Source: an uncultured Candidatus Saccharibacteria bacterium
GTDB taxonomy: Bacteria > Patescibacteriota > Minisyncoccia > Phycocordibacterales > DATDWN01
Direction of reading: 5' to 3'
Length of the DNA stretch: 64,000 bases
NCBI GenBank assembly: GCA_964391455.1
Contig: CAYMJQ010000001.1
Location: 15,865-79,864, forward strand
The notes beneath the pieces were generated by a model. It saw only the letters and a list, made by a program, of their open reading frames with translations. It made no database searches and was not told the DNA's origin. Below are positions 10,128 to 52,787 of this stretch, in pieces. Positions within the stretch are counted from its first letter, which is position 1; each line of letters begins with the position of its first letter. Position numbers and translations under genes: made by a program.

Positions 10128-10148
10128 TCAAACTCGTCGGGAGCTAGC

Positions 10149-16267: not shown

Positions 16268-16280
16268 CATCCAAAAATAT

Positions 16281-16309: not shown

Positions 16310-16315
16310 GTTTAC

Positions 16316-16612
16316 GGACTGCTAAGGAGGGCTATAATACACGCCCGTAAGTCGGGTAGATCCAATCTGCTCGTTGGATCGGGGCCAAGCGGCCTGTTTC
16401 GTTGCCAGAGCCTGCTCTCCAGAGGAGCCAAGGTCCCCATTAGGGGCCAAGGTAATCCATCCTCGTCCAGACAAAAATCTGGTGAGGAGGATTCTCGCCA
16501 GGTTTTATGCCCAAAGTTCGAGCCCTAAGCAAGCTCGTTCAAAGGGACTGGGTAGTGGTCCTGCACTCCGTGGCCGATGGTACCGAAAGGTACTGTCGGC
16601 AACGGGGTTTTT
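16316..16612 (+). ncRNA. About 300-nt GC-rich structured ncRNA of unassigned family. It is a discrete transcription unit with its own promoter and an intrinsic terminator (17-bp stem, GAAA tetraloop, then GGUUUUU at 16568-16612)
   Basis: Local GC is about 55% in a roughly 33% genome. There are multiple internal hairpins (e.g. GGAUCCAA...UUGGAUC, GAGGGC...GCCC). Two overlapping ORFs (16265-16528, 16374-16652) lack an SD and look spurious. Short matches to the SRP-Alu and RNase P P4 regions (CUGCUAAGGAGGG, GUAAGUCGGGU) are not decisive. Confidence 0.4.
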
Positions 16613-16648
16613 CTTTATAAAAAAAATTAATAATGTTAGATTATTTAA

Positions 16649-25646: not shown

Positions 25647-26012
25647 TTACCTCGCTACAAAGTAGCGAATCGGAAGATGCGCCCTTTTGTCTCTGGGTAC
25701 ATACTCATCTTCCAAAAATTCTTCAATGGGGATTTGACCTGTTACGGTCGAGGCCGGCTGGACGTACGAAAAGAACACAACATTACCAGAATACCAAGGA
25801 TTCTTCCTTACTGGATTCTGGCAAAGCTGTATTACTGTAGCACCGGCGGTCCCAATTTCTGGGACATTGGTGTTGTGAAGACCAATCTGACATTTGCTTG
25901 TTTCAATCTGAACAAGCTGTTTGCCGGATACGAGATCACTTTGGGTGACAGGGAAGAATCCCTGTCTCTTCATGTGTTCCCGCAGTCTTTTTATCTTGAA
26001 ATAACTCGGCAT
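25647..26012 (-). CDS. Hypothetical 121-aa protein encoded in a GC-elevated segment directly downstream of tRNA-Ala(GGC)
   Basis: A strong SD (AAGGAGG) sits 7 nt upstream of the ATG at 26012. There is no signal peptide and no recognisable domain. GC is about 48%. The plus-strand 119-aa ORF over the same DNA lacks an SD. Confidence 0.35.
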   Translation of the reverse strand: MPSYFKIKRLREHMKRQGFFPVTQSDLVSGKQLVQIETSKCQIGLHNTNVPEIGTAGATVIQLCQNPVRKNPWYSGNVVFFSYVQPASTVTGQIPIEEFLEDEYVPRDKRAHLPIRYFVAR

Positions 26013-26080
26013 CTCTATCCTCCTTTTGATCTGTAAGGTATAGAAGCATTTATTATGTGTTTTGTCTATGATTTAAACAG

Positions 26081-26151
26081 TGGACCTAGGGAGAATCGAA
26101 CTCCCGCTACATCCATGCCATGGATATGTTATACCACTTAACTATAGGCCC
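26081..26151 (-). tRNA. tRNA-Ala (anticodon GGC)
   Basis: The cloverleaf was folded by eye: acceptor GGGCCUA/UAGGUCC with the G3-U70 Ala identity pair, anticodon loop AUGGCAU, T-loop UUCGAUU and discriminator A. CCA is not encoded. Confidence 0.8.
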
Positions 26152-26275
26152 GAATATTTTAGAAGATTATAAATAATTTGTAAGATAATTCAAAATCTGG
26201 TAATCTTTTCTCTGGGGGTTATGGTCACATATATTTTGCTCGTCGACCTCGTCGTCTCGTCCATTTCAGTCTTAT

Positions 26276-26399
26276 GGGCCCGTAGCTCATCTGGTAGAGT
26301 GAGATTGGGTAAGGGAACCAATCGCAAGATCGGAGGCTGGCCGGGCCGAGGTGGGGTCGCAAAATTTTTAACAAAAAATTATTGTGACCATCATTTGCA
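26276..26399 (+). pseudogene. Chimeric tRNA-Ala fragment: an exact copy of nt 1-24 of the downstream tRNA-Ala(UGC), an 89-nt GC-rich unrelated insert, then an 11-nt copy of the anticodon-arm segment (CATCATTTGCA). There is no 3' half
   Basis: There are direct sequence identities to 26429-26452 and 26455-26465. The fragment cannot fold into a complete tRNA. Confidence 0.5.
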
Positions 26400-26428
26400 C
26401 AAATAAAATGTTCTAACAATTTAATACT

Positions 26429-26501
26429 GGGCCCGTAGCTCATCTGGTAGAGCACATCATTTGCAATGATGGGGTGGCAGGTTCGAGTCCTGTCGGGTCC
26501 A
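26429..26501 (+). tRNA. tRNA-Ala (anticodon UGC)
   Basis: Acceptor GGGCCCG/CGGGUCC with G3-U70, D-arm GCUCAUCUGGUAGAGC, anticodon loop UUUGCAA, T-arm GCAGG-UUCGAGU-CCUGU. It is 73 nt long and CCA is not encoded. Confidence 0.9.
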
Positions 26502-26505
26502 CAGA

Positions 26506-32232: not shown

Positions 32233-32262
32233 CCGGTTTTTGTATTTGTAAACTAAGACTGT
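32233..32262. terminator. Bidirectional terminator hairpin (GAACCGGTCGC-TTTG-GCGAACCGGTT) shared by the convergent small ORF and the MltG-like gene
   Basis: An 11-bp stem was read directly, with T-runs on both sides. Confidence 0.5.
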
Positions 32263-33053
32263 AAATATTTTTTAATGTTAGCTTTATGTTCTTCGTATGT
32301 TCTGGCACAGTGAATTTTTCTTTTTTTATCGTGTATGTAGAACATACAGTTTGTTTTTTGCGGGTTATAGGCGGCTTCAATAGCAGAAAGTCCTGGGTTG
32401 GCTATCGGACTAGGAGGAAGCCCTGTTTCTTTATATGTATTATAAGGAGAATTTATTCCTTTATCACTCGGTTCTACTTGTCCCCACCATCCATCTTCTT
32501 CATTTCCTTTAGCATATTGTAGTGTCGCATCCATCTGAAGTTTCATTCCGGCCCAGATTCTGTTCCAGATTACACCTGATATAAGTCTCATATCATGCTT
32601 GCCGGCAGCTTCTCGTTGTATTATGGACGCTATTTTTAAAGCAGTATCTTCGTTTATTAATTCTTTTCTTTTTTGTTTCCTTACTGCAGAAGTTTCTCTT
32701 AAGAATTGTTTTAGCATTACTGCAGTCACTCCCATAGGGTCTTCATCTTTATGTAAAAGATATGTTTTTGGAAAGTATTTTCCTTCTAAATTATTTGTAT
32801 TAAGGGCTAGGTGAGCGTTTATAAAACTATTTTTTTCTTTATCATCCCATCCTAATTTTGAGCCAACTATTTCTGCTATTTCCTCTTTTCTTAATCCTTC
32901 TTGTATACGTACTATTTTTACTGAAGGATTGGCAAGATTTTGGTAAAAAGAAAGTGTGCCTAGTAAAGAAAGGTCTATATTGTGGTAACTTAACATTCCA
33001 ATAAGAGTTCCTACAGACAAAGTAAAGAATATTATAGTTGTTCTCCAAGACAT
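32253..33053 (-). CDS. mltG: Endolytic murein transglycosylase MltG/YceG family
   Basis: There is an N-terminal TM. The YceG-family signature GLPPSPIANPGLSAIEAAYNP is present, together with upstream conserved blocks. Confidence 0.7.
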   Translation of the reverse strand: MSWRTTIIFFTLSVGTLIGMLSYHNIDLSLLGTLSFYQNLANPSVKIVRIQEGLRKEEIAEIVGSKLGWDDKEKNSFINAHLALNTNNLEGKYFPKTYLLHKDEDPMGVTAVMLKQFLRETSAVRKQKRKELINEDTALKIASIIQREAAGKHDMRLISGVIWNRIWAGMKLQMDATLQYAKGNEEDGWWGQVEPSDKGINSPYNTYKETGLPPSPIANPGLSAIEAAYNPQKTNCMFYIHDKKRKIHCARTYEEHKANIKKYLQS

Positions 33054-33364: not shown

Positions 33365-33940
33365 ATGCCTAAAAAAGTTTTTATTTTAGCTGGTCATCCT
33401 GATACCGAAAGTATGTGTTGCGATTTTGCTTCTGCTTATGCAAACGGTGCGAAATCTTCCGGACACTCTGTTAGACTTACAAAACTATCTGAAATGAAAT
33501 TTGATCCGATATTACATAAAGGCTACAAAGTAATTCAAGAATTGGAACCGGATTTGATTAAATTTCAGGAGGATGTTAGATGGTGTGATCATTTTGTGAT
33601 TATCTACCCGTCTTGGTGGTCTACAATGCCCGCTTTACTTAAAGGTTTGTTTGATAGAGTCTGGCTTCCTGGTTTTGCATTTAAATTTTTGCCAAGCGGT
33701 ATAGGATGGAGAAGACTTCTGAGGGGTAGAACGGCTAGGGTTTTTATAACATCAGATTCACATCCTCTCATCGCTAGATTTTTACAAGGAGATAATACAA
33801 ATGAAATTCAAGACGGGATATTGTGGTTCGCTGGCTTCTATACAAAAATCACAAAAGTTGGACCGATGAAGAAAATTTCTGAAGAAAAGAAAAATTCTTG
33901 GTTAAGAAAATTTAAAGAATACGGAAGAAAAGTGTACTAA
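33365..33940 (+). CDS. Flavodoxin-like fold NAD(P)H dehydrogenase (quinone) / NAD(P)H-dependent oxidoreductase
   Basis: The KVFILAGHPDTESMC start and HFVIIYPSWWSTMPALLKG region are typical of the Flavodoxin_2/NQO1-like family. Confidence 0.65.
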   Translation: MPKKVFILAGHPDTESMCCDFASAYANGAKSSGHSVRLTKLSEMKFDPILHKGYKVIQELEPDLIKFQEDVRWCDHFVIIYPSWWSTMPALLKGLFDRVWLPGFAFKFLPSGIGWRRLLRGRTARVFITSDSHPLIARFLQGDNTNEIQDGILWFAGFYTKITKVGPMKKISEEKKNSWLRKFKEYGRKVY

Positions 33941-33948
33941 TTTTAATA

Positions 33949-33977
33949 TTGACATTAGTATTTAATTGTGATAGTAT
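33949..33977 (+). promoter_or_regulatory. Sigma70-type promoter for the collagen-like gene: TTGACA, 17 nt, TAGTAT
   Basis: Read directly. A 7-bp hairpin (GCTGTCA-ATTTC-TGACAGC) lies in the 5' UTR at 33987-34005, followed by the AAGGAGG SD. Confidence 0.45.
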
Positions 33978-34018
33978 GATATAAGAGCTGTCAATTTCTG
34001 ACAGCAAGGAGGTTTTTT

Positions 34019-34810
34019 GTGAAGAACATCGTTTGGTGTGTTTTTGTTCTGGGTCTTCTCGTTGCTCTGGAGGGCGACGTCAAGGCCCAGATCGGCGGTG
34101 TCCAGCTGGACACCACCTGTGTCACTGGGACCGAAGGGGGTTGCAAGCCCCCGACGGAACCCACCCCCGCCCCAGGGCCTCCCGGACCGCCGGGACCCCA
34201 GGGCCCTCCGGGGCCGGCTGGTCCACAGGGGCCCGAAGGACCCAAGGGGGATCCGGGTCCCCAGGGGCCCGAAGGCCCTCCTGGACCGCCCGGAGGCGAG
34301 TGCGTCGAGAACATGAGTGAGTGGGCTCACTGGGATGGGGACGTCCCGTTGGTCTACATGGATACCACAGACGTGATGCTCACGATCCCCCGGGGCAATT
34401 GTCGTCCCAACGACATGCTTTGGTATGATCGTGAGTCGCGGGTGATGCTTTTCTGGGATTACAATCACCCTTCCGGAACCCCGCACGTTACGGGATTCCG
34501 TCGTGGTGGGGAAATTCCCGTCTGGACTCACATTGCTGTGCTGACGCCTCGAGTTTTTCATTTCGTGGCATCGGCTCCGCACAACCACGGACCCAACAGT
34601 CCGGCAAGGTTTCCAACGCATTTCTGCACAGTCGGCCTGGGGAACATGATCCTTGGGGCGACAAAGAAGGGTGTCTACTACGGTTCATACCCCATCACCA
34701 TCCTCACAACATACGGGACGATTCCACTCACGGAAATCACCCCGGAAGTGTGGGAAGCAATGGTCGGCCACGACCATGACCACATGGAGATGACTCCTCC
34801 CGGCAAGTAA
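34019..34810 (+). CDS. Secreted collagen-like triple-helix repeat protein (13 G-X-Y triplets, [40 protein letters not shown]) with a 170-aa C-terminal globular domain. It is encoded in a 60% GC island
   Basis: It uses a GTG start 7 nt after AAGGAGG. There is a signal peptide ([16 protein letters not shown]) and a His-rich C-terminus (GHDHDHMEM). The gene has its own promoter and terminator. The GC composition contrasts sharply with the flanks. Confidence 0.6.
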
Positions 34811-34842
34811 CACGTCGTCAGTAACACCGACGACAACAACAA

Positions 34843-34884
34843 CCCTCAGCTACGCACCGTATGTGTGCGGGCTGGGGGTTTTTC
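34843..34884. terminator. Long GC-rich hairpin followed by T5 that terminates the collagen-like gene. It also lies just past the stop of the convergent CPA2 gene
   Basis: CCCTCAGCTACGCACC...GTGTGCGGGCTGGGGG followed by TTTTT. A second hairpin (GTCGTC...GACGAC) is at 34814-34834. Confidence 0.55.
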
Positions 34885-34887
34885 TAA

Positions 34888-36582
34888 TTATGAAATTTTC
34901 GGATGTTCGTGGCCGCTTTTTATTCTGTAATTTATTGATTCAATGTGTTTATTTTTTAACTCTTCTCTTTTTTCTGGATTTTTATGTAATGAAATACTTA
35001 TTTCCGCTGCGTATTTACCACCCAGAAAGTGAGGTAAGATTACATAATTTACACCGTTTTGATAATGTTCTAAAGCATCTTGTATTTTGTGAGAGACAAC
35101 CATCACCAAAGCATTTGGATTATTTTCGCGAACTATTTTATTGATTAAAAAATTTGCTTCTGGATCTGGTATTGTGGATACAATAGTCTCTATTTCAGAG
35201 AAATCTAGATTTTGCAAATAATCCAAAGTAGTCGCGTCTCCGTAATCAACATTTAATCCTTTTTCTTCCAATTCTTTTATAATTTCAGGGTTATGATCCA
35301 CAACTAAAAATGGTTTGCCTAATTTTTTAAATTCTTCAATAAAGTCATAACCAACACGATTGCCACCAAAAAGAATTACAGGATATTTGATATTTTTTTC
35401 ATTTTTTTCAAAGGCGTTTTTTCTTTCAAAAATTCCTAGAAACGGAGATAGTATTTTGTAAATATAATCAGAGTGCAAAATAAAGTAAGTAGATACAAAT
35501 ATAGTGATAATTCCAATAAGAGTAGTTAGAGCCAAGGTTTCATTACTTACATGACCATAAGCCACTCCCATAGCGATAAGAATTAGAGAGAATTCACTTA
35601 TTTGAGCAACGGTAAAACCTGTTTGCAAGCTAGTTCTTTTTTTATAACCCAAGACACCCATAATAACCATAAGTATAAGAGGGTTACCGATAAGGACTAA
35701 AAGTGAGAATATTATAGCTTTCGGTAGTTGTTCTCCCAGTATGTCAAAATTCATATGAGAACCTAGTATTATGAAAAATATGACAATGAAAAAGTCTCTT
35801 AAGGGCGCCATTTTTGCACTGATTTCATGTCTGCTTGGTAGTGTAGAAAGAGCTATTCCGGCGATAAGAGCTCCTGTTTCTATAGAAAAACCAGTTAATT
35901 TAAAGATGCTGGCTATCCCCAAACCCCAAACAGTAGCAAACATAAATAATATTTCTATGTCTTTTGCCAAAAATTTATTTAATTTTGGAATTACGTATAA
36001 TCCAAAACTTACTATTGCAGTGATTAAAACAAACCCTCGTGTAATAATGTAAGCAATCTCTTCATAACTAGATTCTCCAATAGATATAAGTGGAATTATA
36101 AATATCAATATTACAGCGATGAAGTCTTGAACCAGCAAAAAACCTATGGAAATTTTTGCATACAAAGTTTCCATATCTCCTTTATCGGAGATAAGTTTCA
36201 TTATTATAATAGTGCTACTGAAAGCTAGAGCTACAGATATGTAAAGTGATGAGACAATATCAAAACCAAGTAGTTGTGCTGTAAAATATCCAGCAAAAGA
36301 CGTGATGACTACTTGACCTAGACCAGTTATGACTGCTACTTTTCCAAATTCACGTATAACTTTTGGACTTAGGTTAAGCCCGACAGTAAAAAGAAGAATA
36401 GCTATTCCTATTTCTGAAAAAAGTTGAAATGTTTCTGTGGAAACTTGTATTGCGACTAAAGGACCTATTATAAGACCGGTTATTATGTGACCGATTATAA
36501 GGGGTTGTTTTAATAAATGCATTATTAATGCAACAACAAACGCAATTCCAATAAGCAAACTAAATTCCGTAAATAAAGTCAT
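34888..36582 (-). CDS. Monovalent cation:proton antiporter-2 (CPA2, KefB-like) with a C-terminal TrkA-N (RCK) domain
   Basis: It has 12-13 TM helices with Na+/H+ exchanger motifs. The C-terminal Rossmann region is VILFGGNRVGYDFIEEF. Confidence 0.8.
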   Translation of the reverse strand: MTLFTEFSLLIGIAFVVALIMHLLKQPLIIGHIITGLIIGPLVAIQVSTETFQLFSEIGIAILLFTVGLNLSPKVIREFGKVAVITGLGQVVITSFAGYFTAQLLGFDIVSSLYISVALAFSSTIIIMKLISDKGDMETLYAKISIGFLLVQDFIAVILIFIIPLISIGESSYEEIAYIITRGFVLITAIVSFGLYVIPKLNKFLAKDIEILFMFATVWGLGIASIFKLTGFSIETGALIAGIALSTLPSRHEISAKMAPLRDFFIVIFFIILGSHMNFDILGEQLPKAIIFSLLVLIGNPLILMVIMGVLGYKKRTSLQTGFTVAQISEFSLILIAMGVAYGHVSNETLALTTLIGIITIFVSTYFILHSDYIYKILSPFLGIFERKNAFEKNEKNIKYPVILFGGNRVGYDFIEEFKKLGKPFLVVDHNPEIIKELEEKGLNVDYGDATTLDYLQNLDFSEIETIVSTIPDPEANFLINKIVRENNPNALVMVVSHKIQDALEHYQNGVNYVILPHFLGGKYAAEISISLHKNPEKREELKNKHIESINYRIKSGHEHPKIS

Positions 36583-36627
36583 GAGATTATTCTATCATTA
36601 GATAAATAAATAAAAATGATATAGAAT

Positions 36628-42523: not shown

Positions 42524-43561
42524 ATGAGTGAAAAAACAATAATAAAATTCAAACCTAAACAAGTGGTCAAAAAATTACTTTCTGTTGTTGGTGATAGAGC
42601 TAAAGATGTGCTCACATCTAGATTTGGACTAGGTTCCGATACAAAAAGAATGACTCTTGAAGCCATAGGTAAAAAATACAAAATTACCAGAGAGAGAGTG
42701 CGACAAATTGAAAACTACTCAATTATAAACATAAGAAAATCAAAAGAATACGCAAAAGAGAAGGAAGCTTTTGATGAATTATTAAAACTGATAACAGAGA
42801 TGGGGTCTACTGTTTCTGAAGATCATCTTTTAAAACATATATCTAAAGATAAATCTATTCAAAATCATGTTCATTTTCTATTGGTAATAGGAGAGAGTTT
42901 TGTAAAAGAAAAAGAAGATCCTGAATTTAAGCATAGATGGTCAGTAGATAAAGAACTGTCCAAGAAAATTCACTCATCTCTTAAAGAGTTATATTCTTCT
43001 ATTTCAGACGACGAGATTCTTTTAGAATCAGATATGATAGAAAAGTTTTTGAATAATATAAAGGATGTTTCTGAAAAATATAAAAATGAAGAGATAGCAA
43101 GAAGATGGCTTGCTTTATCAAAATTAATTGATAAAAACCCTCTTGGAGAGTGGGGTAAAACAACTTCACCAAATATTAATGCTAAGGGTATGAGAGACTA
43201 TGCTTATCTAGTGATAAGAAGACATGGATCACCTATACACTTTAGAGAAGTAGCGAAACTTATAACAGAATTATTTAATAAAAAAGCACACGTCGCTACA
43301 ACACATAACGAACTAATAAAAGATCCTCGCTTTGTTTTGGTTGGTAGGGGACTTTATGCGCTTTCTGAATGGGGTTATATGAGTGGAGTTGTAAGAGATG
43401 TTATAAGAGGTATTTTGGAAAAAAATGGTCCACTTACAAAAGAAGAGATAATAAACAAGGTTCTTAAAGAAAGATATGTGAAAGAAAATACTATAATGGT
43501 GAATCTTCAGAATCCAAAATTCTTTAAAAAATCAAAAGATGGTAGATATAGTATAGTTTAA
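42524..43561 (+). CDS. Protein with an N-terminal sigma-70 region-4-like HTH and an uncharacterised C-terminal 250 aa
   Basis: LTSRFGLGSDTKRMTLEAIGKKYKITRERVRQIENYSI closely resembles sigma-70 region 4.2. Regions 2 and 3 are absent. Confidence 0.4.
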   Translation: MSEKTIIKFKPKQVVKKLLSVVGDRAKDVLTSRFGLGSDTKRMTLEAIGKKYKITRERVRQIENYSIINIRKSKEYAKEKEAFDELLKLITEMGSTVSEDHLLKHISKDKSIQNHVHFLLVIGESFVKEKEDPEFKHRWSVDKELSKKIHSSLKELYSSISDDEILLESDMIEKFLNNIKDVSEKYKNEEIARRWLALSKLIDKNPLGEWGKTTSPNINAKGMRDYAYLVIRRHGSPIHFREVAKLITELFNKKAHVATTHNELIKDPRFVLVGRGLYALSEWGYMSGVVRDVIRGILEKNGPLTKEEIINKVLKERYVKENTIMVNLQNPKFFKKSKDGRYSIV

Positions 43562-43569
43562 AAGTTTAA

Positions 43570-43600
43570 AAAACCACCCCTTAATTTGGGGTGGTTTTTT
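43570..43600. terminator. Perfect bidirectional intrinsic terminator (AAAACCACCCC-TTAATTT-GGGGTGGTTTTTT)
   Basis: Read directly. Confidence 0.7.
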
Positions 43601-43626: not shown

Positions 43627-44880
43627 ATGATAGATTTTTTCATTGATCTTTTTACTGATCCAATGTTTTTGTCTGTGTTTAGGATATTATTTGAAACTGC
43701 TTTTATATGGTTTCCTATATTGTGTTTATTTATAGCTTGGGAGCTTTGGGTAAGGTATGTACAAGCTATATTTTTTTCGAAACAAAAATATGTATTGCTT
43801 GAGATAAAAGTTCCTAGAGAAGTTTTTAAGTCACCTCAAGCTGCAGAATTTTTTATAAACAGCCTTAGTCAAACTGGCGGTGAATCCAACTGGTATGAAA
43901 AATACTGGAAGGGACAAGTTAGATCTTGGTTTTCTCTTGAAATTACATCCATAAACGGTGCAGTACATTTTTTTATTTGGACAAAAGTCGGACATAAAGC
44001 AGTTATAGAAGCAAACCTATATTCACAATATCCTGGAATAGAGGTATATGAGACTGAAGATTACACTTTACCAGTATCATATAATCCTGAAATAAATACT
44101 GTCTGGGCAACTGAATTTGATTTAACTAAACCAGATGTTTTTCCAATAAAAACATATATTGATTATGGATTAGAAAAAAACCCGGAAGAAGAATATAAAA
44201 TAGATCCACTAACTCCTCTTATAGAATTTTTGGGATCTATACCAAGAGATCAACAAGTATGGATACAGATACTCGTTAGGGCTCACAAAGAAGAAAACAA
44301 AGATCCTGTAACTGGAAAACTAGTTGATTTACGTTGGGCAAAAGCAGCTCAGACAGAAATAGATAAAATTATATCTAGTGCAAAAGGAGAAAAAGATAAA
44401 GAAGGAAAATTGGTTCCTGGAACAGGAAGACAACTAACTGATGTTGAGAAAGAAACCATAAATGCATTAGGTAGAAGTATTTCTAAAAAAGGCTTTGATG
44501 TCGGTATGAGAGCGGTGTACATAACCCCGAAAGATTCGTTTAACCCAAGTAATATTGGTGGCATAATTGGAGGTATTACTCACTTTAATTCAAGTTTAAA
44601 TGGTTTTAAACCAGCGAGAGGATCTTCTGATAAATACAGTTTCTTTCTGCTTGCCTGGAAAGATAGAAGTCAGAAAAAGAAACATGAAGAAAAGGCTGAT
44701 TTATTAGATAAGTACAAAAGAAGAGCTTATTTTCATAAACCGTTCAAAAGTCCTCATTTCGTCTTGAATTCAGAAGAATTAGCAACAATATTTCATTTTC
44801 CTGGAGGAGTTTCAGTTACCCCAACATTCTCTAGAATTGAATCTAAAAAAGCAGAGGCTCCAAGCAATCTTCCTGTTTAA
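43627..44880 (+). CDS. Hypothetical membrane-anchored protein (417 aa)
   Basis: It has two N-terminal TM helices and a large soluble domain with no recognisable motif. Confidence 0.35.
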   Translation: MIDFFIDLFTDPMFLSVFRILFETAFIWFPILCLFIAWELWVRYVQAIFFSKQKYVLLEIKVPREVFKSPQAAEFFINSLSQTGGESNWYEKYWKGQVRSWFSLEITSINGAVHFFIWTKVGHKAVIEANLYSQYPGIEVYETEDYTLPVSYNPEINTVWATEFDLTKPDVFPIKTYIDYGLEKNPEEEYKIDPLTPLIEFLGSIPRDQQVWIQILVRAHKEENKDPVTGKLVDLRWAKAAQTEIDKIISSAKGEKDKEGKLVPGTGRQLTDVEKETINALGRSISKKGFDVGMRAVYITPKDSFNPSNIGGIIGGITHFNSSLNGFKPARGSSDKYSFFLLAWKDRSQKKKHEEKADLLDKYKRRAYFHKPFKSPHFVLNSEELATIFHFPGGVSVTPTFSRIESKKAEAPSNLPV

Positions 44881-44909
44881 ATGAAGCTACTAAAAAATCA
44901 AAATTTAAA

Positions 44910-45926
44910 ATGAACAACGAAAATATAAAATTTTCTATTTCAAATGGATTGCAAGTCTTTATAAAAAAATTTAAAGACTTGCCAATTATTAAAAAATACT
45001 TAATTTCTTTTTTTGTAGTAATTTTGATTCTATTATCTTTTTATATTTTTTTAAAAAACCCTCCGAGAAATTATCCCATAAACACAGTATTTACAATAAA
45101 TGAAGGACAATCATTGCAAAATATAACAAATAATTTATATCAAAATAATATAATCAAACATCCATTAGTATTTAGAAGTGCTGTTATTTTAATGGGGGGA
45201 GAAAGAAATGTAATTGCAGGAAATTATTTTCTAGATAAAAAAGAAAATCCTGTAACTTTGGCTTATCGATTGATGAATGGTGATTTTAATACTGACATTT
45301 TGAAAATTACAATTCCGGAAGGTTGGAATATTTTTAAGATAGCAGATCATTTAGAAAAAAATATAAAAAATTTTAATAAAGATGAATTTATAAGAATAGC
45401 CAAAGAAAAAGAGGGGTATCTTTTTCCAGACACTTATTTTATAGAAGATACCGCAAGGCCTGAATTCATTGTTAATTTGATGAATAAAAATTTTGAAAAC
45501 AAAATAAAAAATGTAAACTCACTTGCAACTTCTACCAGAGACTTGGAAGACATAATAATAATGGCTTCTATATTGGAAGGGGAAGCAAACACAATGGAGA
45601 GTAAAAAAATAGTTTCTGGTATCCTGTGGAAGAGATTAGAAGTGGGAATGCCTCTTCAAGTAGACGCGACTTTTTCTTATGTAAATGGTAAAAATACTTT
45701 CGAATTAACTTTGGATGACTTACAAATAGATTCTCCTTATAATACTTATAAATATAAAGGCCTACCTCCTGGCCCTATCAGTAACCCAGGTTTAAACGCA
45801 ATAAATTCAGCACTAAATCCTACCCAAACAAGATATCTTTACTTTTTAACAGGTAAGGATGGAAAAATGTATTACTCTAGAACATTTGAAGAGCACAAAA
45901 CAAAAAAACAACTACATTTAAAATAA
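44910..45926 (+). CDS. mltG: Endolytic murein transglycosylase MltG/YceG family (second paralog)
   Basis: There is an N-terminal TM. The motif GLPPGPISNPGLNAINSALNP and the shared block DATFSYVNGKN / DATLQYAKGNE link it to 32253-33053. Confidence 0.7.
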   Translation: MNNENIKFSISNGLQVFIKKFKDLPIIKKYLISFFVVILILLSFYIFLKNPPRNYPINTVFTINEGQSLQNITNNLYQNNIIKHPLVFRSAVILMGGERNVIAGNYFLDKKENPVTLAYRLMNGDFNTDILKITIPEGWNIFKIADHLEKNIKNFNKDEFIRIAKEKEGYLFPDTYFIEDTARPEFIVNLMNKNFENKIKNVNSLATSTRDLEDIIIMASILEGEANTMESKKIVSGILWKRLEVGMPLQVDATFSYVNGKNTFELTLDDLQIDSPYNTYKYKGLPPGPISNPGLNAINSALNPTQTRYLYFLTGKDGKMYYSRTFEEHKTKKQLHLK

Positions 45927-45955
45927 TCTCATTTAATTTTTACAACTTATAATAT

Positions 45956-47059
45956 TTGTGTTATTTTGAAAAAATGAATAAAAAACCTAAGGTTTTTGTA
46001 GGTGTCTCTGGTGGAGTTGACAGCTCTGTCTCTTTGGCTTTGCTTCAAAATCAAGGGTTTGATGTTACTGGTGTATTTTTGAAAGTTTGGTATCCAGATT
46101 TTATGCCTTGTGATTGGAAAGAAGAAAGACTTTCTGCGATGAGAGTTTGTGCAACTCTTAATGTTCCTTTTATAACTTTAGATTGTGAGAAGGAATACAA
46201 AAAAGAAGTTGTTGACTATATGATAAGTGAGTATAAATCTGGAAGAATACCTAACCCTGATATATTTTGTAATAAGTATGTAAAATTTGGCGTATTTCTA
46301 AAAAAAGCTATAGAATTAGGGGCTGATTTTATTGCTACAGGACATTATGCAATAAATCACCAACAAAAAGACGGTACTTATGAATTAAAAGAATCTTTAG
46401 ATAAAGAAAAAGACCAGAGTTATTTTTTATATACGTTAACTCAAAATCAATTAAAGCACATAATTTTACCTGTAGGTAATTTAACCAAACCAGAAGTAAG
46501 AAGAAAAGCAGAAGAATTTAAATTACATAATGCCACTAAAAAAGATAGTCAAGGATTGTGTTTTATGGGAAAAGTAGATGTAAAAAAGTTCTTATCACAT
46601 TATATAGAAACTAAAAAAGGTGATGTTTTAAATACAGATGGTGTAGTTATTGGAGAACATGATGGTTCCATATTTTATACAATTGGACAAAGACATGGTT
46701 TTAATATAACTCAAAAGACACCAAATGATCCTAGATATATAGTTATAAGTAAAGATTTAGAAAAAAATACTATTACAGTTGCCGGAAAAGAAGTTCAAAA
46801 AGAAAAAATAAAGAATATAAAAAAAATTCTTTTAAATAATGTTAATTTTATATCAGGCAAAGAACCTCAAACTCCACTATCTTTACAAATAAGGATAAGG
46901 TACAGACAAGAAAAGAAAAAATCTCTGCTAAAAAAAGAAAATAACAACTACTATATTGAATTTTGTGAAGACCAGGAAGCCGTTGCTGTAGGTCAGTCCG
47001 CTGTTTTTTACCAAGACGAAATTTGTTTAGGCGGTGGAATAATAGAAAAAGCTTATTAA
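45956..47059 (+). CDS. mnmA: tRNA-specific 2-thiouridylase
   Basis: VGVSGGVDSSVS PP-loop and conserved catalytic Cys residues are present. Confidence 0.9.
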   Translation: MCYFEKMNKKPKVFVGVSGGVDSSVSLALLQNQGFDVTGVFLKVWYPDFMPCDWKEERLSAMRVCATLNVPFITLDCEKEYKKEVVDYMISEYKSGRIPNPDIFCNKYVKFGVFLKKAIELGADFIATGHYAINHQQKDGTYELKESLDKEKDQSYFLYTLTQNQLKHIILPVGNLTKPEVRRKAEEFKLHNATKKDSQGLCFMGKVDVKKFLSHYIETKKGDVLNTDGVVIGEHDGSIFYTIGQRHGFNITQKTPNDPRYIVISKDLEKNTITVAGKEVQKEKIKNIKKILLNNVNFISGKEPQTPLSLQIRIRYRQEKKKSLLKKENNNYYIEFCEDQEAVAVGQSAVFYQDEICLGGGIIEKAY

Positions 47060-47107
47060 TTTATATTTTGGTTTTACGATATAAAATACTTATGAGATAA
47101 TACGAAT

Positions 47108-47938
47108 ATGGGTAATTTTTACGTAGTAAAATCTGATGGCACAAAAGAACTTTTTGATGTAGACAAATTAGAAAGATCATTAAAAAAAGCTGGAGCTTCT
47201 ACAAAAACAGTATCTGAAATAATAGACAAAACAAAATCTAGTATTTCTGAAGAAATAACCACTCAAGATATATACAAAAAAGCTTTTGATCTTTTACATA
47301 AGGAAGAAAAACCAATAGCTCTTAAGTACTCCTTAAAAAGAGCCATAATGGATCTAGGACCGTCAGGTTTTCCTTTTGAAGATTTCATTGCCGAAGTCTT
47401 AAGGAAAAAAGGCTTTGAAGCTGAAACAGGGAAAATAGTTAGAGGATTTTGTGTGGAGCATGAAGTTGATGTTGTGGCTTGGAATGAAAATAAACTAATT
47501 ATGGTAGAAGCTAAATTTCATAATGAGCTTGGCATTAAATCAGATTTAAAAATTGCTTTGTATGTAAAAGCTCGTTTTGATGATCTAAAAAAAGTTTCTT
47601 ATAGATACGGAAACAAAGAAAGACACTTAGATGAAGGATGGCTTGTAACAAATACAAAATTTACTTCTACTGCAATAGAGTACGGCTCTTGTCAGGGAGG
47701 TATGAGAATGATAGGTTGGAATTATCCTCCTGTGGGGAATTTACACGATATGATTCTTGAATCAAAATTACACCCTGTAACTTGTCTTAGTACACTAACT
47801 GGAAGAGAAAAGAAAGAATTATTAGATAAAGGATTTGTTTTGTGTAAAACTATTTCAGAAAATAAAGACATCCTAATATCTATTGGTTTAGAAAATTCAA
47901 AAATTACAAAAGTTTTGGAAGAAATAGAATCTTTGTAA
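47108..47938 (+). CDS. ATP-cone domain protein fused to a restriction-endonuclease-like (Mrr-cat type) domain
   Basis: The N-terminus FYVVKSDGTKELFDVDKLERSLKKAGAS is an ATP cone. The central EDFIAEVLRKKGFEAE...VDVVAWNENKLIMVEAKFHN is the PD-(D/E)xK / Mrr catalytic-domain pattern. Confidence 0.55.
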   Translation: MGNFYVVKSDGTKELFDVDKLERSLKKAGASTKTVSEIIDKTKSSISEEITTQDIYKKAFDLLHKEEKPIALKYSLKRAIMDLGPSGFPFEDFIAEVLRKKGFEAETGKIVRGFCVEHEVDVVAWNENKLIMVEAKFHNELGIKSDLKIALYVKARFDDLKKVSYRYGNKERHLDEGWLVTNTKFTSTAIEYGSCQGGMRMIGWNYPPVGNLHDMILESKLHPVTCLSTLTGREKKELLDKGFVLCKTISENKDILISIGLENSKITKVLEEIESL

Positions 47939-47939
47939 A

Positions 47940-48551
47940 ATGGCAAAAGGTAATAAAAAAAATCAAAAAATAAAAACCGATAAAAGTATAGCTAATTTTT
48001 TCTTTGAAGTTGGAATGCTCGCAAAAACACCTAGAAGTGGTTTTCATTTTTTAGGTACTGGAGAGCAATCTGTTGCCGAGCACACTAACAGAACCGCTTT
48101 TATCGGATATTCTTTGGCTCAAATGGATGGTACTGTAGATGTTTTAAAAGTATTAAAAATGTGCTTATTTCATGATATATCTGAAACACGTATATCAGAT
48201 TTAAATCATATACACCAAAAATATGTCGAAAGAAAAGAGCATAGTGCGGTAAAAGACATATCAGACTCAATACCATTCGGAGAAGACATATTTTTAACTC
48301 TTTTGGAATATGAAAAAAAAGAATCAAAAGAAGCAATTTTAGTAAAAGATGCAGATACATTAGAATGGATTACCTCATTAAAAGAGGAAATAGATACTGG
48401 GAATACAAGAGCTGAAGAATGGATTAAGTTTGCAATAAATAGATTAAAAACTCCTTTTGCTAAAGACATAGCAAAAGCTATAATGTCAGCGGATTCAAGT
48501 GATTGGTGGTTTCCAGAAGATTCAGTTATTAGAAATAAAAAATATTTATAA
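47940..48551 (+). CDS. HD-domain phosphohydrolase (YfbR-like 5'-deoxynucleotidase family)
   Basis: The H...HD...D motif is present (VAEHTNRTAF...LFHDISETRISD). Its start is 2 nt after the preceding gene. Confidence 0.65.
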   Translation: MAKGNKKNQKIKTDKSIANFFFEVGMLAKTPRSGFHFLGTGEQSVAEHTNRTAFIGYSLAQMDGTVDVLKVLKMCLFHDISETRISDLNHIHQKYVERKEHSAVKDISDSIPFGEDIFLTLLEYEKKESKEAILVKDADTLEWITSLKEEIDTGNTRAEEWIKFAINRLKTPFAKDIAKAIMSADSSDWWFPEDSVIRNKKYL

Positions 48552-48569
48552 AACTAAATAGAAAAAACT

Positions 48570-49181
48570 ATGAGTTTAACACTAGAAGAAAAATTTGAAA
48601 AAATGAAACAAATAAGAGACGAACTGTTACAACTCAAAGAATCTCCCTTGTATCAGTATAGAATTGAAAACAAATATTTCCCTGTAGTAGGTGAAGGTAG
48701 TCATACTGCTCATATAATGTTTGTAGGAGAAGCTCCTGGAAAAAATGAAGCTGAGACAGGCAGGCCTTTTTCTGGTAAATCTGGTAAGGTTTTGGATAAT
48801 ATGTTGGAATCTATTAAATTGAATAGAAGTGATGTTTATATAACAAATATAGTTAAAGACAGACCACAAGAAAACAGAGACCCCACTGAAGAAGAAATAA
48901 AGTTATACGCACCTTTTCTTGATAGACAAATAGATATAATACAACCAAATGTTATAGCTACTCTAGGAAGATTTTCCATGAATTATATAATGAATCGATT
49001 TGGGTTAAGTGACAAAATAGGTCCGATAAGTCAGTTGCATGGGAAAGAATTTGTGGCTCAAACAAACTACGGTCCAATAAGTATAATACCGCTTTACCAC
49101 CCAGCAGTTTCTCTATACGATGGATCAAACAAAGAAACTATTCTCAAAGATTTCCAAGTATTAACAAAATATATAAAATAA
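48570..49181 (+). CDS. Uracil-DNA glycosylase, family 4
   Basis: GEGSHTAHIMFVGEAPGKNEAETGRPFSGKSGKVLD is the family-4 UDG motif. Confidence 0.8.
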   Translation: MSLTLEEKFEKMKQIRDELLQLKESPLYQYRIENKYFPVVGEGSHTAHIMFVGEAPGKNEAETGRPFSGKSGKVLDNMLESIKLNRSDVYITNIVKDRPQENRDPTEEEIKLYAPFLDRQIDIIQPNVIATLGRFSMNYIMNRFGLSDKIGPISQLHGKEFVAQTNYGPISIIPLYHPAVSLYDGSNKETILKDFQVLTKYIK

Positions 49182-50959
49182 TGACAAAAAAAACTGAAAA
49201 CAAAATAAAAACAGAATGGGACTTAAAACAATTATATAAATCTCCAAAAGATTCTCAGATAGATAAAGATATTTCTATAACTGAAAATGCTTATATTAAT
49301 TTTGCCAAAAAATATAAAAAAAATAACAAATATTTAACTCAAGAAAATTCACTTTTAAATGCACTTAAAGAGTATGAAGAGTTAAATGACTTACCGGGAT
49401 CAAAAACTTATTTTTACCTTCATCTTGCTGGAGATTTGAATAGTTTTGATGAATCCATAAAAGCAAAAAGAAATTTAGTATCACAAAAAATACAAGAAAT
49501 ATCTAACACTATTGTTTTTTTTGAACTTAATCTTTCTAAAATACCAAATAAACAACAAAAAATATTTCTAAAAAGTAAAAAACTTGAAAAATATAAATAT
49601 TTTCTAAAAAAAATTTTTGAAAATGGAAAATATCTATTAACTGAGCCTGAAGAAAAAATACTTTCGCTGAAATCAATTACCTCAAGTAGTATGTGGGTTC
49701 AAGCAGTAGAAAATATAAAAAGCAAAAAAACTATAGAATATAAAAATAAACAGATATCAATCCCTGAAGCAGTATCAATTATAAACGAACTGCCTTCACA
49801 AAAAAATAGATTTGAACTCCAAAATAAAATTATGGAGGCATATTATTCTATTTCAGAAATTGCTGAAAGTGAACTTAACGCTATTGTTATAGATAAAAAA
49901 ATAAATGACGAATTAAGAGGATTCAAAGAAGTATTTGATTCAACCATAATTGCGTACGAGAATGAGAGAGAAACTGTTAAGAGTCTTATAAAAACAGTAA
50001 CAGATAATTTTAAAATTTCTAACAGATTTTACAAAATCAAAGCAAAAATGCTTAATGTTTCAAGACTAAACTACTCTGACAGATCAGCCAAAGTGGGGAA
50101 GATTAATTTGAAGTATTCTTTTGAAGATTCTTATAAAATTCTATATGAGCTATTTAATAAGACTGACCCTAAATTTGCACAAATAATAAAAAAGTTTGTA
50201 GAAAATGGCCAAATAGACGTGTATCCAAAAATTGGCAAAAAAGGTGGGGCATATTGTTCTCACCAACACGGAATGCCCATCTTTGTTATGCTAAACCACA
50301 CAAATACAGCTGATTCACTGTCTACTTTTGCCCATGAAATGGGTCATGCAATACACTCTGAATTTGCAAAATCACAACCATCTATATATGAAGGATACTC
50401 AATGTCTACAGCTGAGGTAGCGAGTACATTTTTTGAATCTTTACTTTTCTATGAATTATTTGAAAAAATGTCAAATGAAGAAAAAATATTAGCTCTCCAT
50501 GATAAAATCCAGGATGATGTTTCAACAATTTTTCGACAAATAGCTTGTTTTAATTTTGAAACAGAAATGCATAACCTGATACGCCAAAAAGGAAACCTAT
50601 CTAAAGAAGAACTTGCTTCTATTATGAATAAACACATGAAAAACTACATAGGAGATGTAAATTTTGGACCAAAAGATGGGTATTCTTTTGTCGGTTGGCC
50701 TCATATTAGATACATGTTTTATGTTTATTCATATGCCTTCGGACAACTAACAAGTAAAGCTTTGTTTAATAAGTATAAACAAGATAAAACATTCATTGAA
50801 AAAATAAAACAATTTTTGAGTACTGGTAGTTCTATGTCTCCAGAAGATACATTTAAAAAAATAGGATTAGATTTGAAAAACCCAGAATTTTGGCGTAGTG
50901 GTATAAAAGAAATAGAAAATGACATTAAGACACTTGAAAAACTTATATCTAAAAAGTAG
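49181..50959 (+). CDS. pepF: Oligoendopeptidase F (M3B metallopeptidase)
   Basis: HEMGHAIHSE zinc motif and M3B family length and organisation. Confidence 0.8.
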   Translation: MTKKTENKIKTEWDLKQLYKSPKDSQIDKDISITENAYINFAKKYKKNNKYLTQENSLLNALKEYEELNDLPGSKTYFYLHLAGDLNSFDESIKAKRNLVSQKIQEISNTIVFFELNLSKIPNKQQKIFLKSKKLEKYKYFLKKIFENGKYLLTEPEEKILSLKSITSSSMWVQAVENIKSKKTIEYKNKQISIPEAVSIINELPSQKNRFELQNKIMEAYYSISEIAESELNAIVIDKKINDELRGFKEVFDSTIIAYENERETVKSLIKTVTDNFKISNRFYKIKAKMLNVSRLNYSDRSAKVGKINLKYSFEDSYKILYELFNKTDPKFAQIIKKFVENGQIDVYPKIGKKGGAYCSHQHGMPIFVMLNHTNTADSLSTFAHEMGHAIHSEFAKSQPSIYEGYSMSTAEVASTFFESLLFYELFEKMSNEEKILALHDKIQDDVSTIFRQIACFNFETEMHNLIRQKGNLSKEELASIMNKHMKNYIGDVNFGPKDGYSFVGWPHIRYMFYVYSYAFGQLTSKALFNKYKQDKTFIEKIKQFLSTGSSMSPEDTFKKIGLDLKNPEFWRSGIKEIENDIKTLEKLISKK

Positions 50960-50974
50960 TGTAATATTATAAAT

Positions 50975-52741
50975 ATGAACTCACAAGAAATAAGAAAACG
51001 ATTTTTAAATTTTTTTGAAAAAAGAGGTCACGCAATAATACCCTCGGCTTCGCTTATACCAGAAAATGATCCTTCGGTATTATTTAACACTGCAGGCATG
51101 CAACCTCTGGTTCCTTACTTACTTGGACAAGAACACCCTAAAGGTAAAAGACTTGTAGATATTCAAAAATGCGTTAGAACGAATGATATCGATGAAGTGG
51201 GTGATAATACTCATCTTACCTTTTTTGAAATGATGGGTAACTGGTCGTTAGGAGATTATTGGAAAAAAGAATCTATTAACTGGAGTTATGAACTACTAAC
51301 ATCTAAAGATGAAGGATTTGGTTTGGACCCACAAAGACTTTATGTAACTTGTTTTGAAGGAAATGAAAATGTTCCCAAAGATACAGAATCTGCAGAAATC
51401 TGGAAAGAAATTTTTGAAAAAAATGGCATAACTGGAGAAAGAATTTATTTTAGACCGAAAGAAAAAAATTGGTGGTCTGCTGGCCCAAATGGTCCGTGTG
51501 GTCCTGATACAGAAATGTTTTACGACTTAACTGGTGAACTTAACTCTGGGATGACGTTAGACGAATATCTAAAGGCCGATGATGAACAAAAAGTTGTTGA
51601 GATATGGAACAATGTTTTTATGCAATATTTGTCTAAAGATGGAAATGTAATTGGGGAGCTTCCAAAAAAAAATGTTGATACAGGTGCTGGTTTTGAAAGA
51701 GTGGTCGCGGTAGTACAAGGTAAACCTAATGTATATGAAATTGATATATTTGAAAACATTATTAAAACGACTTCTAAACTATCTTCAAGTGAGAAAAATC
51801 AAAAGATAATTGCTGATCATTTTAGAACTGCAGTTTTTATGATTACTGATGGTGTGGTTCCATCAAATACTGATAGAGGATATATTCTACGAAGACTAAT
51901 AAGAAGGTCAGTTGTCAAAATGGACAAAAGATCCGATGGTTCAAAAATTAACCTTGAAGAAATTTCGGAACTAATTAATATAATTTCAGATGTCTATGAA
52001 TCTAGCTATCCTGAAATTAAAAACAATCTACATAAAGTAAATGTAATTATTCAAGAAGAAATTAATAGATTTTCTAAAACATTAGAAACTGGCTTAAAAC
52101 AATTTGAAAAAGGAGAAGACCCTTTTATACTATTTACCACATATGGATTCCCAATTGAGCTGACCTTGGAACTAGGTAAGGAAAATGGAATAAAAATAGA
52201 TAAAGATACTTTTGATAAAAAATTTAAAGAACACCAAGAGCTTTCAAGGCAAGGAAGTGAACAGAAGTTCAAGGGTGGACTTTCTGGCACTGGAGAAATG
52301 GAAACGAAATATCACACAGCAACACATCTACTACACCAAGTGTTAAGAGATATATTAGGTGACTCTGTGCAACAAAAAGGAAGCAATATCACACCAGAAA
52401 GACTTAGATTTGATTTTTCTTTTCCAAGAAAAATGACAGATGATGAAAAACAAAGAGTCGAAGATACTGTAAATGAAAAAATAAAAATGAAACTTCCAGT
52501 AGATAAAATTTTAATGAAAAAAGATGAGGCTGAAAAAATAGGAGCTCTTCATTTTTTTGGGGAAAAATATCCAGATGAAGTAACTGTTTATTATATAGGA
52601 GACTCCATTGAAAGCGCTTATTCAAAAGAATTTTGTGGAGGACCGCACGTAGAGAATATTGGTATCTTGGGTAAGTTTAAAATTATAAAAGAAGAAGCGG
52701 TCTCTGTAGGGATAAGAAGAATAAAAGCTGTATTAGAATAA
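50975..52741 (+). CDS. alaS: Alanyl-tRNA synthetase (catalytic plus editing domains; lacks the C-terminal C-Ala/DHHA1 region)
   Basis: The class II core (FNTAGMQP, RTNDIDEVGDNTHLTFFEMMGNWS) and editing-domain HxxxH/CxxxH (HTATHLLHQ, CGGPHV) are present. At 588 aa it is much shorter than the roughly 870 aa canonical form. Confidence 0.85.
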   Translation: MNSQEIRKRFLNFFEKRGHAIIPSASLIPENDPSVLFNTAGMQPLVPYLLGQEHPKGKRLVDIQKCVRTNDIDEVGDNTHLTFFEMMGNWSLGDYWKKESINWSYELLTSKDEGFGLDPQRLYVTCFEGNENVPKDTESAEIWKEIFEKNGITGERIYFRPKEKNWWSAGPNGPCGPDTEMFYDLTGELNSGMTLDEYLKADDEQKVVEIWNNVFMQYLSKDGNVIGELPKKNVDTGAGFERVVAVVQGKPNVYEIDIFENIIKTTSKLSSSEKNQKIIADHFRTAVFMITDGVVPSNTDRGYILRRLIRRSVVKMDKRSDGSKINLEEISELINIISDVYESSYPEIKNNLHKVNVIIQEEINRFSKTLETGLKQFEKGEDPFILFTTYGFPIELTLELGKENGIKIDKDTFDKKFKEHQELSRQGSEQKFKGGLSGTGEMETKYHTATHLLHQVLRDILGDSVQQKGSNITPERLRFDFSFPRKMTDDEKQRVEDTVNEKIKMKLPVDKILMKKDEAEKIGALHFFGEKYPDEVTVYYIGDSIESAYSKEFCGGPHVENIGILGKFKIIKEEAVSVGIRRIKAVLE

Positions 52742-52787
52742 AAATCTTTTATTAAAGATTAAATTAGATGCTATAATAAAAAATATT

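Follow-up and report, generated by a model that had tools for sequence, protein, structure and literature searches.

Why does a 0.9-kb segment of high guanine-plus-cytosine (GC) content lie within an AT-rich bacterial chromosome, and what does the one gene that it carries do? The segment, referred to here as the cassette, occupies positions 33949–34884 of the window, which is the whole 64,000-nucleotide (nt) stretch of contig CAYMJQ010000001.1 that was analysed. Its coding sequence (CDS; 34019–34810, plus strand) specifies a collagen-like, putatively secreted protein of 263 amino acids (aa), P0001, which is identical to the protein on record from NCBI and Logan. The answer favoured here, at a probability of roughly 0.6, is that P0001 is a highly expressed trimeric surface fibre or adhesin, encoded at a hypervariable Parcubacteria locus by a gene that is foreign in origin and has long been resident.

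A first-pass annotation, made from the sequence alone, had drawn attention to the sharp compositional contrast between this ~0.9-kb segment and its ~33 % GC surroundings, and the contrast is borne out at 61 % versus 32.5 % GC. The open reading frame (ORF) at 34019–34810 has a GC content of 0.609 (0.648, 0.519 and 0.659 at the first, second and third codon positions, respectively), compared with 0.325 for the rest of the 64-kb window. In a 200-nt profile, GC climbs from 0.285 at 33800–33999 to 0.76 at 34100–34299 and has fallen to 0.315 by 34900, and in a 1-kb scan every interval other than the cassette stays at or below 0.41. GC at third codon positions (GC3) is 0.66, against 0.223 ± 0.087 in 62 other window ORFs, and this value, together with those for the individual codon positions, indicates that the excess is more than an effect of Gly and Pro codons. 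With 58 other window ORFs as the reference, an index akin to the codon adaptation index (CAI) stands at 0.315 for the cassette ORF versus 0.712 ± 0.036 (z = −11). The codons that are rarest in the host are favoured, with CCC supplying 16 of 39 Pro codons compared with 4 % in the host; all seven Lys codons are AAG, all five Gln codons are CAG, and AAA, AGA, TTA and ATA are absent altogether. The tetranucleotide distance to the rest of the window (0.92) is the maximum found anywhere within it, the median being 0.30. The GC3 and codon-adaptation statistics that had been proposed as a check consequently agree with this distance in revealing a composition that is not uniform, and both the composition and the codon usage of the cassette are foreign to the host.

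Borders as sharp as these could arise if a fragment of a co-assembled, high-GC organism had been stitched into a low-GC contig, an artefact against which the first-pass annotation had cautioned. The sharpness of the borders is, however, the one observation that favours such a chimera. An independent Logan assembly of run SRR15237806 contains a 2094-bp contig (L001) that matches window positions 33639–35732 with 0 mismatches and crosses both composition borders, and those borders coincide with a host-like promoter and terminator. In at least eight more contigs, drawn from other samples and from several sources (Logan, JGI, ENA and NCBI), the same slot holds GC-rich family members. The segment is not chimeric, and the artefact is excluded with a residual probability that is negligible.

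With regard to its setting, the cassette is a chromosomal resident of a Parcubacteria bacterium (Paceibacterota, within the candidate phyla radiation, CPR). The best named matches of the DnaK encoded in the window are from Parcubacteria group bacterium Gr01-1014_46 (91 %), Candidatus Zambryskibacteria, and Paceibacterota and Minisyncoccia metagenome-assembled genomes, with identities of 87–91 %. The neighbours are ordinary genes, namely VanW, DUF948, YceG, a flavodoxin-like gene, a Na+/H+ exchanger, YchF, a cupin, DUF5671 and LeuRS. The slot itself extends from the flavodoxin-like gene to ychF (33941–36627), and holds the cassette along with a Na+/H+ exchanger/TrkA_N gene on the minus strand (34888–36582). 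No integrase, transposase or reverse transcriptase was found among the subset of window ORFs tested, which covers ~26.7–44.9 kb, and no repeat of 30 nt or more touches 33949–34884, there being neither flanking repeats nor a template/variable repeat pair. Two kinds of mobile or diversifying element were considered and rejected. A mobile gene cassette of the integron type does not agree with the cassette having its own promoter, with the lack of an integrase or transposase in the tested ORFs, or with a 3′ element that is a stem and U-run of the terminator type. The target of a diversity-generating retroelement is likewise not indicated, as the cassette contains no repeat of at least 30 nt and no reverse transcriptase is present among the ORFs scanned in that same interval.

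Comparison of 59 metagenomic loci, retrieved by way of the flavodoxin-like gene, shows how variable this slot is. In eight more distant relatives (L026, L027, L039, L042, L046, L056, L057 and L064) the site is empty and the flavodoxin-like gene directly adjoins ychF, whilst in other relatives 1.4–4.9 kb of unrelated genes lie between the two. The closest counterpart of the window gene is a type A orthologue (P0002/P0122, in L002 and L009), which is 72 % identical to P0001 overall and 82 % identical in the C-terminal head domain; in both loci it follows YceG (on the minus strand), a 74-aa ORF and the flavodoxin-like gene, as in the window. Four further types are found in the same slot: type B as P0144 in L010, with the start of the same type in L018; type C as a P0143-like gene in L011, L012 and L074; type D as P0136 in L072; and type E as P0150 in L075 and L076. 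In the last of these, the order is YceG, an 87-aa ORF, cassette, YchF, cupin, DUF5671 and LeuRS, with the downstream order as in the window. The heads of the other types are only ~30–37 % identical to that of the window, and three of the types possess an extra N-terminal domain of ~120 aa. On the contigs with complete genes (L010, L072, L074 and L075/L076), cassette GC is 0.58–0.63 and GC3 is 0.68–0.82, with flanks at 0.33–0.36. In the pairing of L010 and L009, the flanks are 87–91 % identical at the nucleotide level, yet the cassettes (types B and A, respectively) cannot be aligned; it follows that cassettes are replaced as units. Judged by these comparisons, the window segment is the type A allele of a hypervariable, swappable slot, for which at least five deeply divergent GC-rich types exist in closer relatives.

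The flavodoxin-like/ychF interval (window 33941–36627; loci L013–L030) also behaves as a general insertion hotspot, with, for example, GC-rich ORFs at 6694–9255 of L016/L028 (44 % GC contig) and a 776-aa gene within the interval in L014.

Given so foreign a composition, the first-pass annotation had proposed recent horizontal acquisition, i.e. a late arrival from a high-GC donor that has had no time to ameliorate. The GC of 0.61 versus 0.325 and the CAI-like z score are what such an event would produce, the closest head outside the CPR (P0134, 54 % identical) lies in a 65 % GC contig, and the difference in cassette type between close relatives demonstrates that replacements within the slot do occur. 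The relationship to L009 speaks for a different history. Flanking orthologues of the window and L009 share 53–93 % protein identity, and at the nucleotide level the cassette CDS is 74.7 % identical compared with 76.9 % for the flank. The proportion of synonymous differences (pS) is 0.71 for the cassette and 0.60–0.76 for the flanks, with synonymous sites saturated in both. As cassette and flanks have diverged equally, to synonymous saturation, the gene must have been present by the time the lineages of the window and L009 separated, with vertical inheritance from then on. Between P0001 and its L009 orthologue, the ratio of non-synonymous to synonymous change (dN/dS) is 0.12 for the whole protein and 0.07 for the head; the latter value points to purifying selection and indicates that the gene is functional in both lineages. 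The L009 orthologue is itself 56 % GC in a contig of 37 % GC. In addition, the promoters and untranslated regions (UTRs) of the cassettes, terminator included, are AT-rich, host-like and conserved across cassette types, which implies that the cassettes have circulated in the CPR gene pool rather than being fresh arrivals from outside it; and a search of 5.8 billion proteins contains no donor copy that exceeds 58 % identity. For the type A allele, recent acquisition is largely refuted, and it is very improbable as an account of the locus. What stands of the original proposal is the horizontal origin, which is supported by the foreign composition and by a family otherwise native to high-GC bacteria; what does not is its recency, the L009 orthologue having diverged in step with its flanks.

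As an observation in its own right, L009 carries a ~10-kb block that is inverted directly downstream of the cassette (window 43627–53963 versus L009 11317–20939) and that comprises DUF8128, a YceG paralogue, MnmA, an ATP-cone protein, HD, UDG, PepF, AlaRS and a 391-aa ORF; one rearrangement breakpoint thus abuts the 3′ end of the cassette.

As to where the gene came from, the family is otherwise native to bacteria of ~65–72 % GC, which makes a horizontal origin likely. In three Vicinamibacterales/Acidobacteriota genomes the family gene lies in a syntenic housekeeping neighbourhood (Peptidase_M55, Peptidase_M48, DUF898 and RNA methyltransferase), and its GC3 of 0.92–0.96 is in line with the genome. 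Two other members are found on contigs of 63–72 % GC that resemble mobile elements (L003 and L073), where ParB, a DUF1376 primosomal protein and a DNA methyltransferase are also encoded. When the heads are placed in a neighbour-joining tree, type A clusters with P0134, P0138 and P0141 (bootstrap 83) and types B and C cluster with P0003, P0131, P0132 and P0004 (bootstrap 69), all seven being high-GC members, and type D stands apart. The CPR alleles accordingly look polyphyletic in this tree, which suggests that transfer between high-GC bacteria and Parcubacteria took place more than once. The cassette gene is likely to be foreign in origin; it is anciently resident, with an entry that preceded the split of the window and L009 lineages, and has been GC-rich ever since.

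One of the high-GC clade-mates of the window head, P0138, resides on the 63 % GC mobile-element-like contig L073 from run SRR15237809, the accession of which is adjacent to that of the run behind the window (SRR15237806), suggesting the same study or habitat.

The persistence of this foreign composition can be examined at fourfold degenerate sites, where the type A gene has 0.49/0.59 G+C versus 0.16/0.19 in ten flanking genes. When the fraction of G/C–G/C fourfold pairs that retain the same base between window and L009 (0.64) is used as an estimate of retention, a rough two-state model of decay that starts from 0.9 in the ancestor predicts ~0.40 G+C, which is below the values observed. With only 107 sites available, this excess over the decay model is suggestive, rather than proof. 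The correlation of GC state at fourfold sites (S–S pairs observed at 0.31 versus 0.29 expected) is not diagnostic if the ancestor was nearly all G/C. Three candidate causes may be named for the retained GC: selection acting on the mRNA, for its structure or its stability; selection that favours translating a secreted triple-helix protein slowly; and periodic renewal from high-GC donors. A gene that keeps its foreign composition (GC3 of ~0.6–0.8 versus 0.2) through synonymous saturation challenges the equation of atypical GC with recent transfer, and raises the question of selection on the composition of coding sequences.

Turning to the protein itself, its architecture had been annotated as a signal peptide, 13 Gly-X-Y (GXY) triplets and an uncharacterised C-terminal domain with a His-rich end, and each of these components is present. 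By inspection, aa 1–23 (34019–34087, plus strand, as for all of the features that follow) form a leader with an n-region, a hydrophobic core and a V-x-A motif, with cleavage placed at V-K-A|Q, such that the protein appears to be secreted; a hydrophobic N-terminal leader is also seen in nearly all full-length family members. The linker at aa 24–52 (34088–34174) contains Cys34 and Cys42 ahead of a Pro/Thr-rich run, and the arrangement Cys-x(3-7)-Cys before the GXY run recurs family-wide. Within the collagen repeat at aa 53–94 (34175–34300), a regular-expression count gives 13 canonical triplets and a 14th, GGE, and the Pfam model PF01391 (Collagen) matches aa 52–92 with 31.6 bits against a cutoff of 27.2. 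C-terminal to the repeat are 169 aa, which comprise the head at aa 95–251 (34301–34771; ~150–155 aa, predicted to be all-beta and of an undescribed family) and the His-rich tail (34772–34807), for which the confidence of the structural model (predicted local distance difference test, pLDDT) is below 50. Tails of a similar H-x-H...PQ kind are found in P0002, P0136, P0137, P0150, P0152 and P0158.

The head family is rare. A full search of 5.8 billion proteins returned the C-terminal domain in just a handful, and a head profile found 43 clusters among 1.84 billion cluster representatives (50 % identity). P0001 is the best match of that profile (3.3e-60), and has the domain order of nearly all full-length members, i.e. 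a leader, Cys-x(3-7)-Cys, 6–23 GXY triplets and a head of ~150 aa, to which a second Cys motif is often, and an H-x-H...PQ tail sometimes, added. Across 37 aligned heads, D106, W169 and C203 are invariant, and H104, P110, D147, R162 and G233 are nearly so. The head has no match in Pfam, NCBIfam or PHROGs, where every match of P0001 is confined to the GXY run, and none in a profile search of PDB sequences. These sequences make up a new family, defined by a leader, a Cys motif, a GXY run and an H-W-D...W...C head. A confident AlphaFold2 model of the head, based on the 37-sequence alignment (pLDDT 83.8; predicted template modelling score, pTM, 0.74), predicts two meanders with eight beta strands between them, after which comes a short alpha/beta part. 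Foldseek comparison of this model with PDB and BFVD returned nothing better than E = 0.2, and the C1q/TNF-like or phage-fibre fold that had been suggested for the domain appeared in none of the Pfam, PDB-profile or Foldseek (PDB and BFVD) searches. The predicted monomer may resemble about two propeller-like blades; an hhalign comparison of the head with the repeat protein P0170 reached a probability of 26 %, which is too weak for use.

A collagen-like repeat is also a feature of phage tail fibres, and the gene might be phage-derived, i.e. a tail fibre or receptor-binding protein from a prophage, or a phage moron. PHROG tail-fibre families do match P0001, and the mobile-element-like contexts of the two high-GC homologues in L003 and L073, described above, point in the same direction. 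The PHROG matches are limited, however, to the GXY region (aa 35–102), and likeness to these fibres, which have short Pro-rich GXY runs matching the same PHROG and Pfam models, ends at the repeat. The search of phage sequences that had been recommended for this domain gave no confirmed head relative in IMG/VR (88 pattern matches, 0 confirmed), and BFVD contains no fold match. There are no phage genes within ±10 kb of the cassette, and its context is instead chromosomal and housekeeping (YceG, flavodoxin-like, Na+/H+ exchanger and YchF), just as the Vicinamibacterales copies sit among housekeeping genes. P0001 also has a putative signal peptide, which virion fibres lack. A phage origin is therefore very improbable.

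The favoured reading, that of a highly expressed surface fibre, draws in part on the expression signals that enclose the gene. The first-pass annotation had described a self-contained expression cassette with a near-consensus promoter, a 5′ UTR hairpin, a perfect Shine–Dalgarno (SD) sequence with a GTG start and a strong terminator, and all of these were confirmed. The sigma-70-type promoter (33949–33977) consists of a −35 element TTGACA (33949–33954), a 17-nt spacer and an extended −10 element TGaTAGTAT (33969–33977), with 10 of 12 matches in addition to the upstream TG. As read from the sequences, TTGACA-N17-TGnTAnnnT lies upstream of every related cassette (L009, L010, L011, L012, L018, L074 and L075). 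The 5′ UTR stem–loop GCTGTCA-ATTTC-TGACAGC (33987–34005; −10.6 kcal/mol, z = −1.4 alone) begins ~3 nt from the inferred transcription start and directly abuts the SD sequence AAGGAGG (34006–34012), which is followed, after 6 nt, by the GTG start at 34019. At the equivalent position the L009 orthologue has GTTGTC-ACAAC-GACAAC, with C:G replaced by T:A on both sides of the stem relative to the window, and one to three 5′ UTR hairpins precede a strong SD in related cassettes, other types included. Hairpins of this kind at the 5′ terminus protect mRNAs from 5′-end-dependent decay and, by analogy, the window example is a probable mRNA-stabilising element.

At the opposite end, a first 3′ UTR hairpin, GUCGUC...GACGAC (34814–34834), has a counterpart at the equivalent position in L009, L010, L072 and L074. 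It is followed by a two-tier intrinsic terminator (34841–34884) that displays a conserved apical loop, ACCGUAUGUGUG, and then a U-run, and that reaches to within 4 nt of the convergent Na+/H+ exchanger gene, on its stop-codon side. The whole 3′ UTR folds with −35.2 kcal/mol (z = −5.0), the stem and U-run being at 34841–34884; a simple terminator scan had missed this structure because its loop exceeds 8 nt. The two-tier form is common to cassette types A–D, with a nearly invariant apical loop, (A)CCGTATGTGTG; of its 19 predicted pairs, 7 show compensatory changes when five cassettes representing four types are compared, whilst the type E terminator (L075) gives no alignment with it. In 604 kb of related DNA, a covariance model of the terminator (R1) has no match at E ≤ 0.01 other than the cassette copies; as these are its own training sequences, the result demonstrates specificity and supplies no independent instance. 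Taken together, the extended −10 promoter, 5′ hairpin, perfect SD and terminator have the layout expected of a strongly expressed, stable mRNA.

How such a protein might work can be outlined as follows. P0001 would be exported by the Sec system, after which three chains would assemble, with the C-terminal head nucleating the trimer and the 13–14 GXY triplets then zipping into a triple helix of ~12 nm. The cysteines that flank the stalk (C34, C42 and C95), along with the invariant C203, could lock the fibre through disulfides. The product would be a short stalk bearing a trimeric, all-beta head with about two propeller-like blades per chain and, since the stalk is threefold, the modelled head may close into a six-bladed pseudo-propeller. 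The fibre would be displayed on, or released from, the cell, and would bind a partner surface such as a host cell, a particle or a glycan. In harbouring at least five deeply different heads in one slot, the locus behaves like one for variable surface antigens or adhesins, and a fixed slot with divergent, swappable heads could be read as the signature of diversifying pressure at the cell surface. For an ultra-small and probably episymbiotic bacterium, the host cell would be the obvious partner, although the variability could equally well be driven by the need to escape phages for which the fibre is the receptor.

The closest likeness is to collagen-like fibres of the BclA, Scl and Lcl type, in the manner of which the cassette protein may work, by analogy, without being a member of any of them; its head family is undescribed. 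BclA, of the Bacillus anthracis exosporium, combines a collagen-like stalk with a C-terminal trimeric head. In BclA as in P0001, a short N-terminal region is followed by a GXY stalk, the length of which varies, and then by a C-terminal globular domain presumed to nucleate the trimer, and the small size of both proteins suits a nap of short fibres; BclA differs, as do C1q/TNF-headed proteins, in that no C1q/TNF-like jelly roll was found for the P0001 head. Scl1, Scl2 and Legionella Lcl are bacterial secreted proteins in which a signal peptide and a GXY stalk are combined with a non-collagenous domain for trimerisation or binding, as is proposed for P0001, and their variable regions differ between strains. 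Against the corresponding NCBIfam models, however, P0001 scores 20 bits where Scl1 and Scl2 require 325 and 400, with the GXY run alone matching, and 20.2 bits where Lcl (NF046116) requires 500. The V domain of Scl is, moreover, N-terminal, whereas the globular domain of P0001 is C-terminal, and P0001 is without LPXTG. For the head, a possible analogy is with RSL of Ralstonia and BambL of Burkholderia, which are trimeric lectins that close into a six-bladed propeller; each is built from two-blade chains, and the P0001 head is modelled with about two blades under a threefold symmetry imposed by the stalk. As a locus, the slot is comparable to those for pilin, O-antigen and capsule, and for the diversified surface proteins of Nanoarchaeota (PMC6142677), in that conserved flanks enclose a fixed slot with divergent alleles that differ between close relatives. 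It departs from these in that each allele is a single, self-promoted gene, ~25 GC points above its genome, with relatives in another phylum.

Several points weigh against the favoured interpretation of a highly expressed surface adhesin. The extremely non-adapted codon usage fits badly with high expression; 13–14 triplets are short for a stable triple helix in the absence of a nucleating domain; no anchor, be it an LPXTG motif, a lipobox or a C-terminal transmembrane segment, was recognised in P0001; and the head tree is of the neighbour-joining kind only, with moderate support (67–83 %). A rival reading is a secreted protein that is not an adhesin, such as a soluble lectin, a metal- or nutrient-binding protein, or a component of an S-layer or matrix, the variability of which would reflect evasion of phages or predators instead of host recognition. 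The conserved His, Asp, Trp and Arg of the head, the His-rich tail and the lack of an anchor motif all agree with this, and propeller-like blades are typical of lectins. Nothing specific opposes it, other than that a stalk-plus-head layout is that of the surface fibres BclA, Scl and Lcl; it is on balance unlikely, although the data accord with it as well as with an adhesin.

An extension of the surface-fibre interpretation, doubtful at present, holds that the GC-rich CDS is actively maintained or renewed, with fibres being exchanged between Parcubacteria and high-GC hosts (for which Acidobacteriota, e.g. Vicinamibacterales, are candidates), and that the head is a six-bladed pseudo-propeller lectin. 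Were these fibres to serve host recognition in this manner, the head type in the slot would predict the host of each Parcubacteria lineage, and head phylogeny would trace gene flow between symbiont and host. For most Parcubacteria (CPR), neither the host nor the molecules used for attachment are known, and this locus provides a concrete candidate: a small, apparently strongly expressed fibre, with a head that is swapped between close relatives and has its nearest relatives in Acidobacteriota. A full-text literature search for collagen-like proteins of the CPR returned no paper, and there was nothing relevant on GC-rich surface genes.

Beyond the cassette, the window contains a second self-contained GC-rich unit, at 10100–10600 on the minus strand. 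Its 105-aa ORF (10149–10466; GC 0.56, GC3 0.71, CAI-like index 0.28) begins with a hydrophobic, lipobox-like leader (MIMKILLLLVVMVVTIGC...), and is preceded by a promoter, TTGACT-N17-TGATATAAT, and followed by a clean hairpin terminator at ~10100–10130. No match was found in Pfam, PHROG or NCBIfam, and no homologue among the 5.8 billion proteins. A further GC-rich stretch of ~300 nt (16280–16620, plus strand) follows a TTGACA-N17-TGcTACACT promoter and ends in a long hairpin and U-run. It folds with −138 kcal/mol (z = −7.6), contains repeated GCCAAGG motifs and no convincing ORF, and remains unmatched in Rfam when the threshold is relaxed to E ≤ 1. The stretch probably represents either a structured RNA that is as yet unclassified or a CPR version of a known RNA that is too divergent for Rfam.

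Repeats and paralogues are also in evidence. Two 40-nt, terminator-like hairpins (AAAACAACCCCTTTTATGGGGTTTTTT) at 59546–59585 and 59682–59721 are 100 % identical and 136 nt apart, with a 65 % similar copy at 43561–43600. At 26080–26502 and 25647–26012, two divergently oriented tRNA-Ala genes (GGC on the minus strand and TGC on the plus strand) and, beside them, a 121-aa ORF with a raised GC content of 0.45 are located. The two YceG-family paralogues (32253–33053 and 44910–45926) show 36–40 % protein identity to each other's L009 orthologues, and share a 66-nt inverted repeat that is 79 % complementary (32392–32457/45725–45790). Finally, a 557-aa ORF at 3360–5033 contains a Lamin Tail Domain (PF00932, 7e-16), and is a candidate for another surface or secreted protein.

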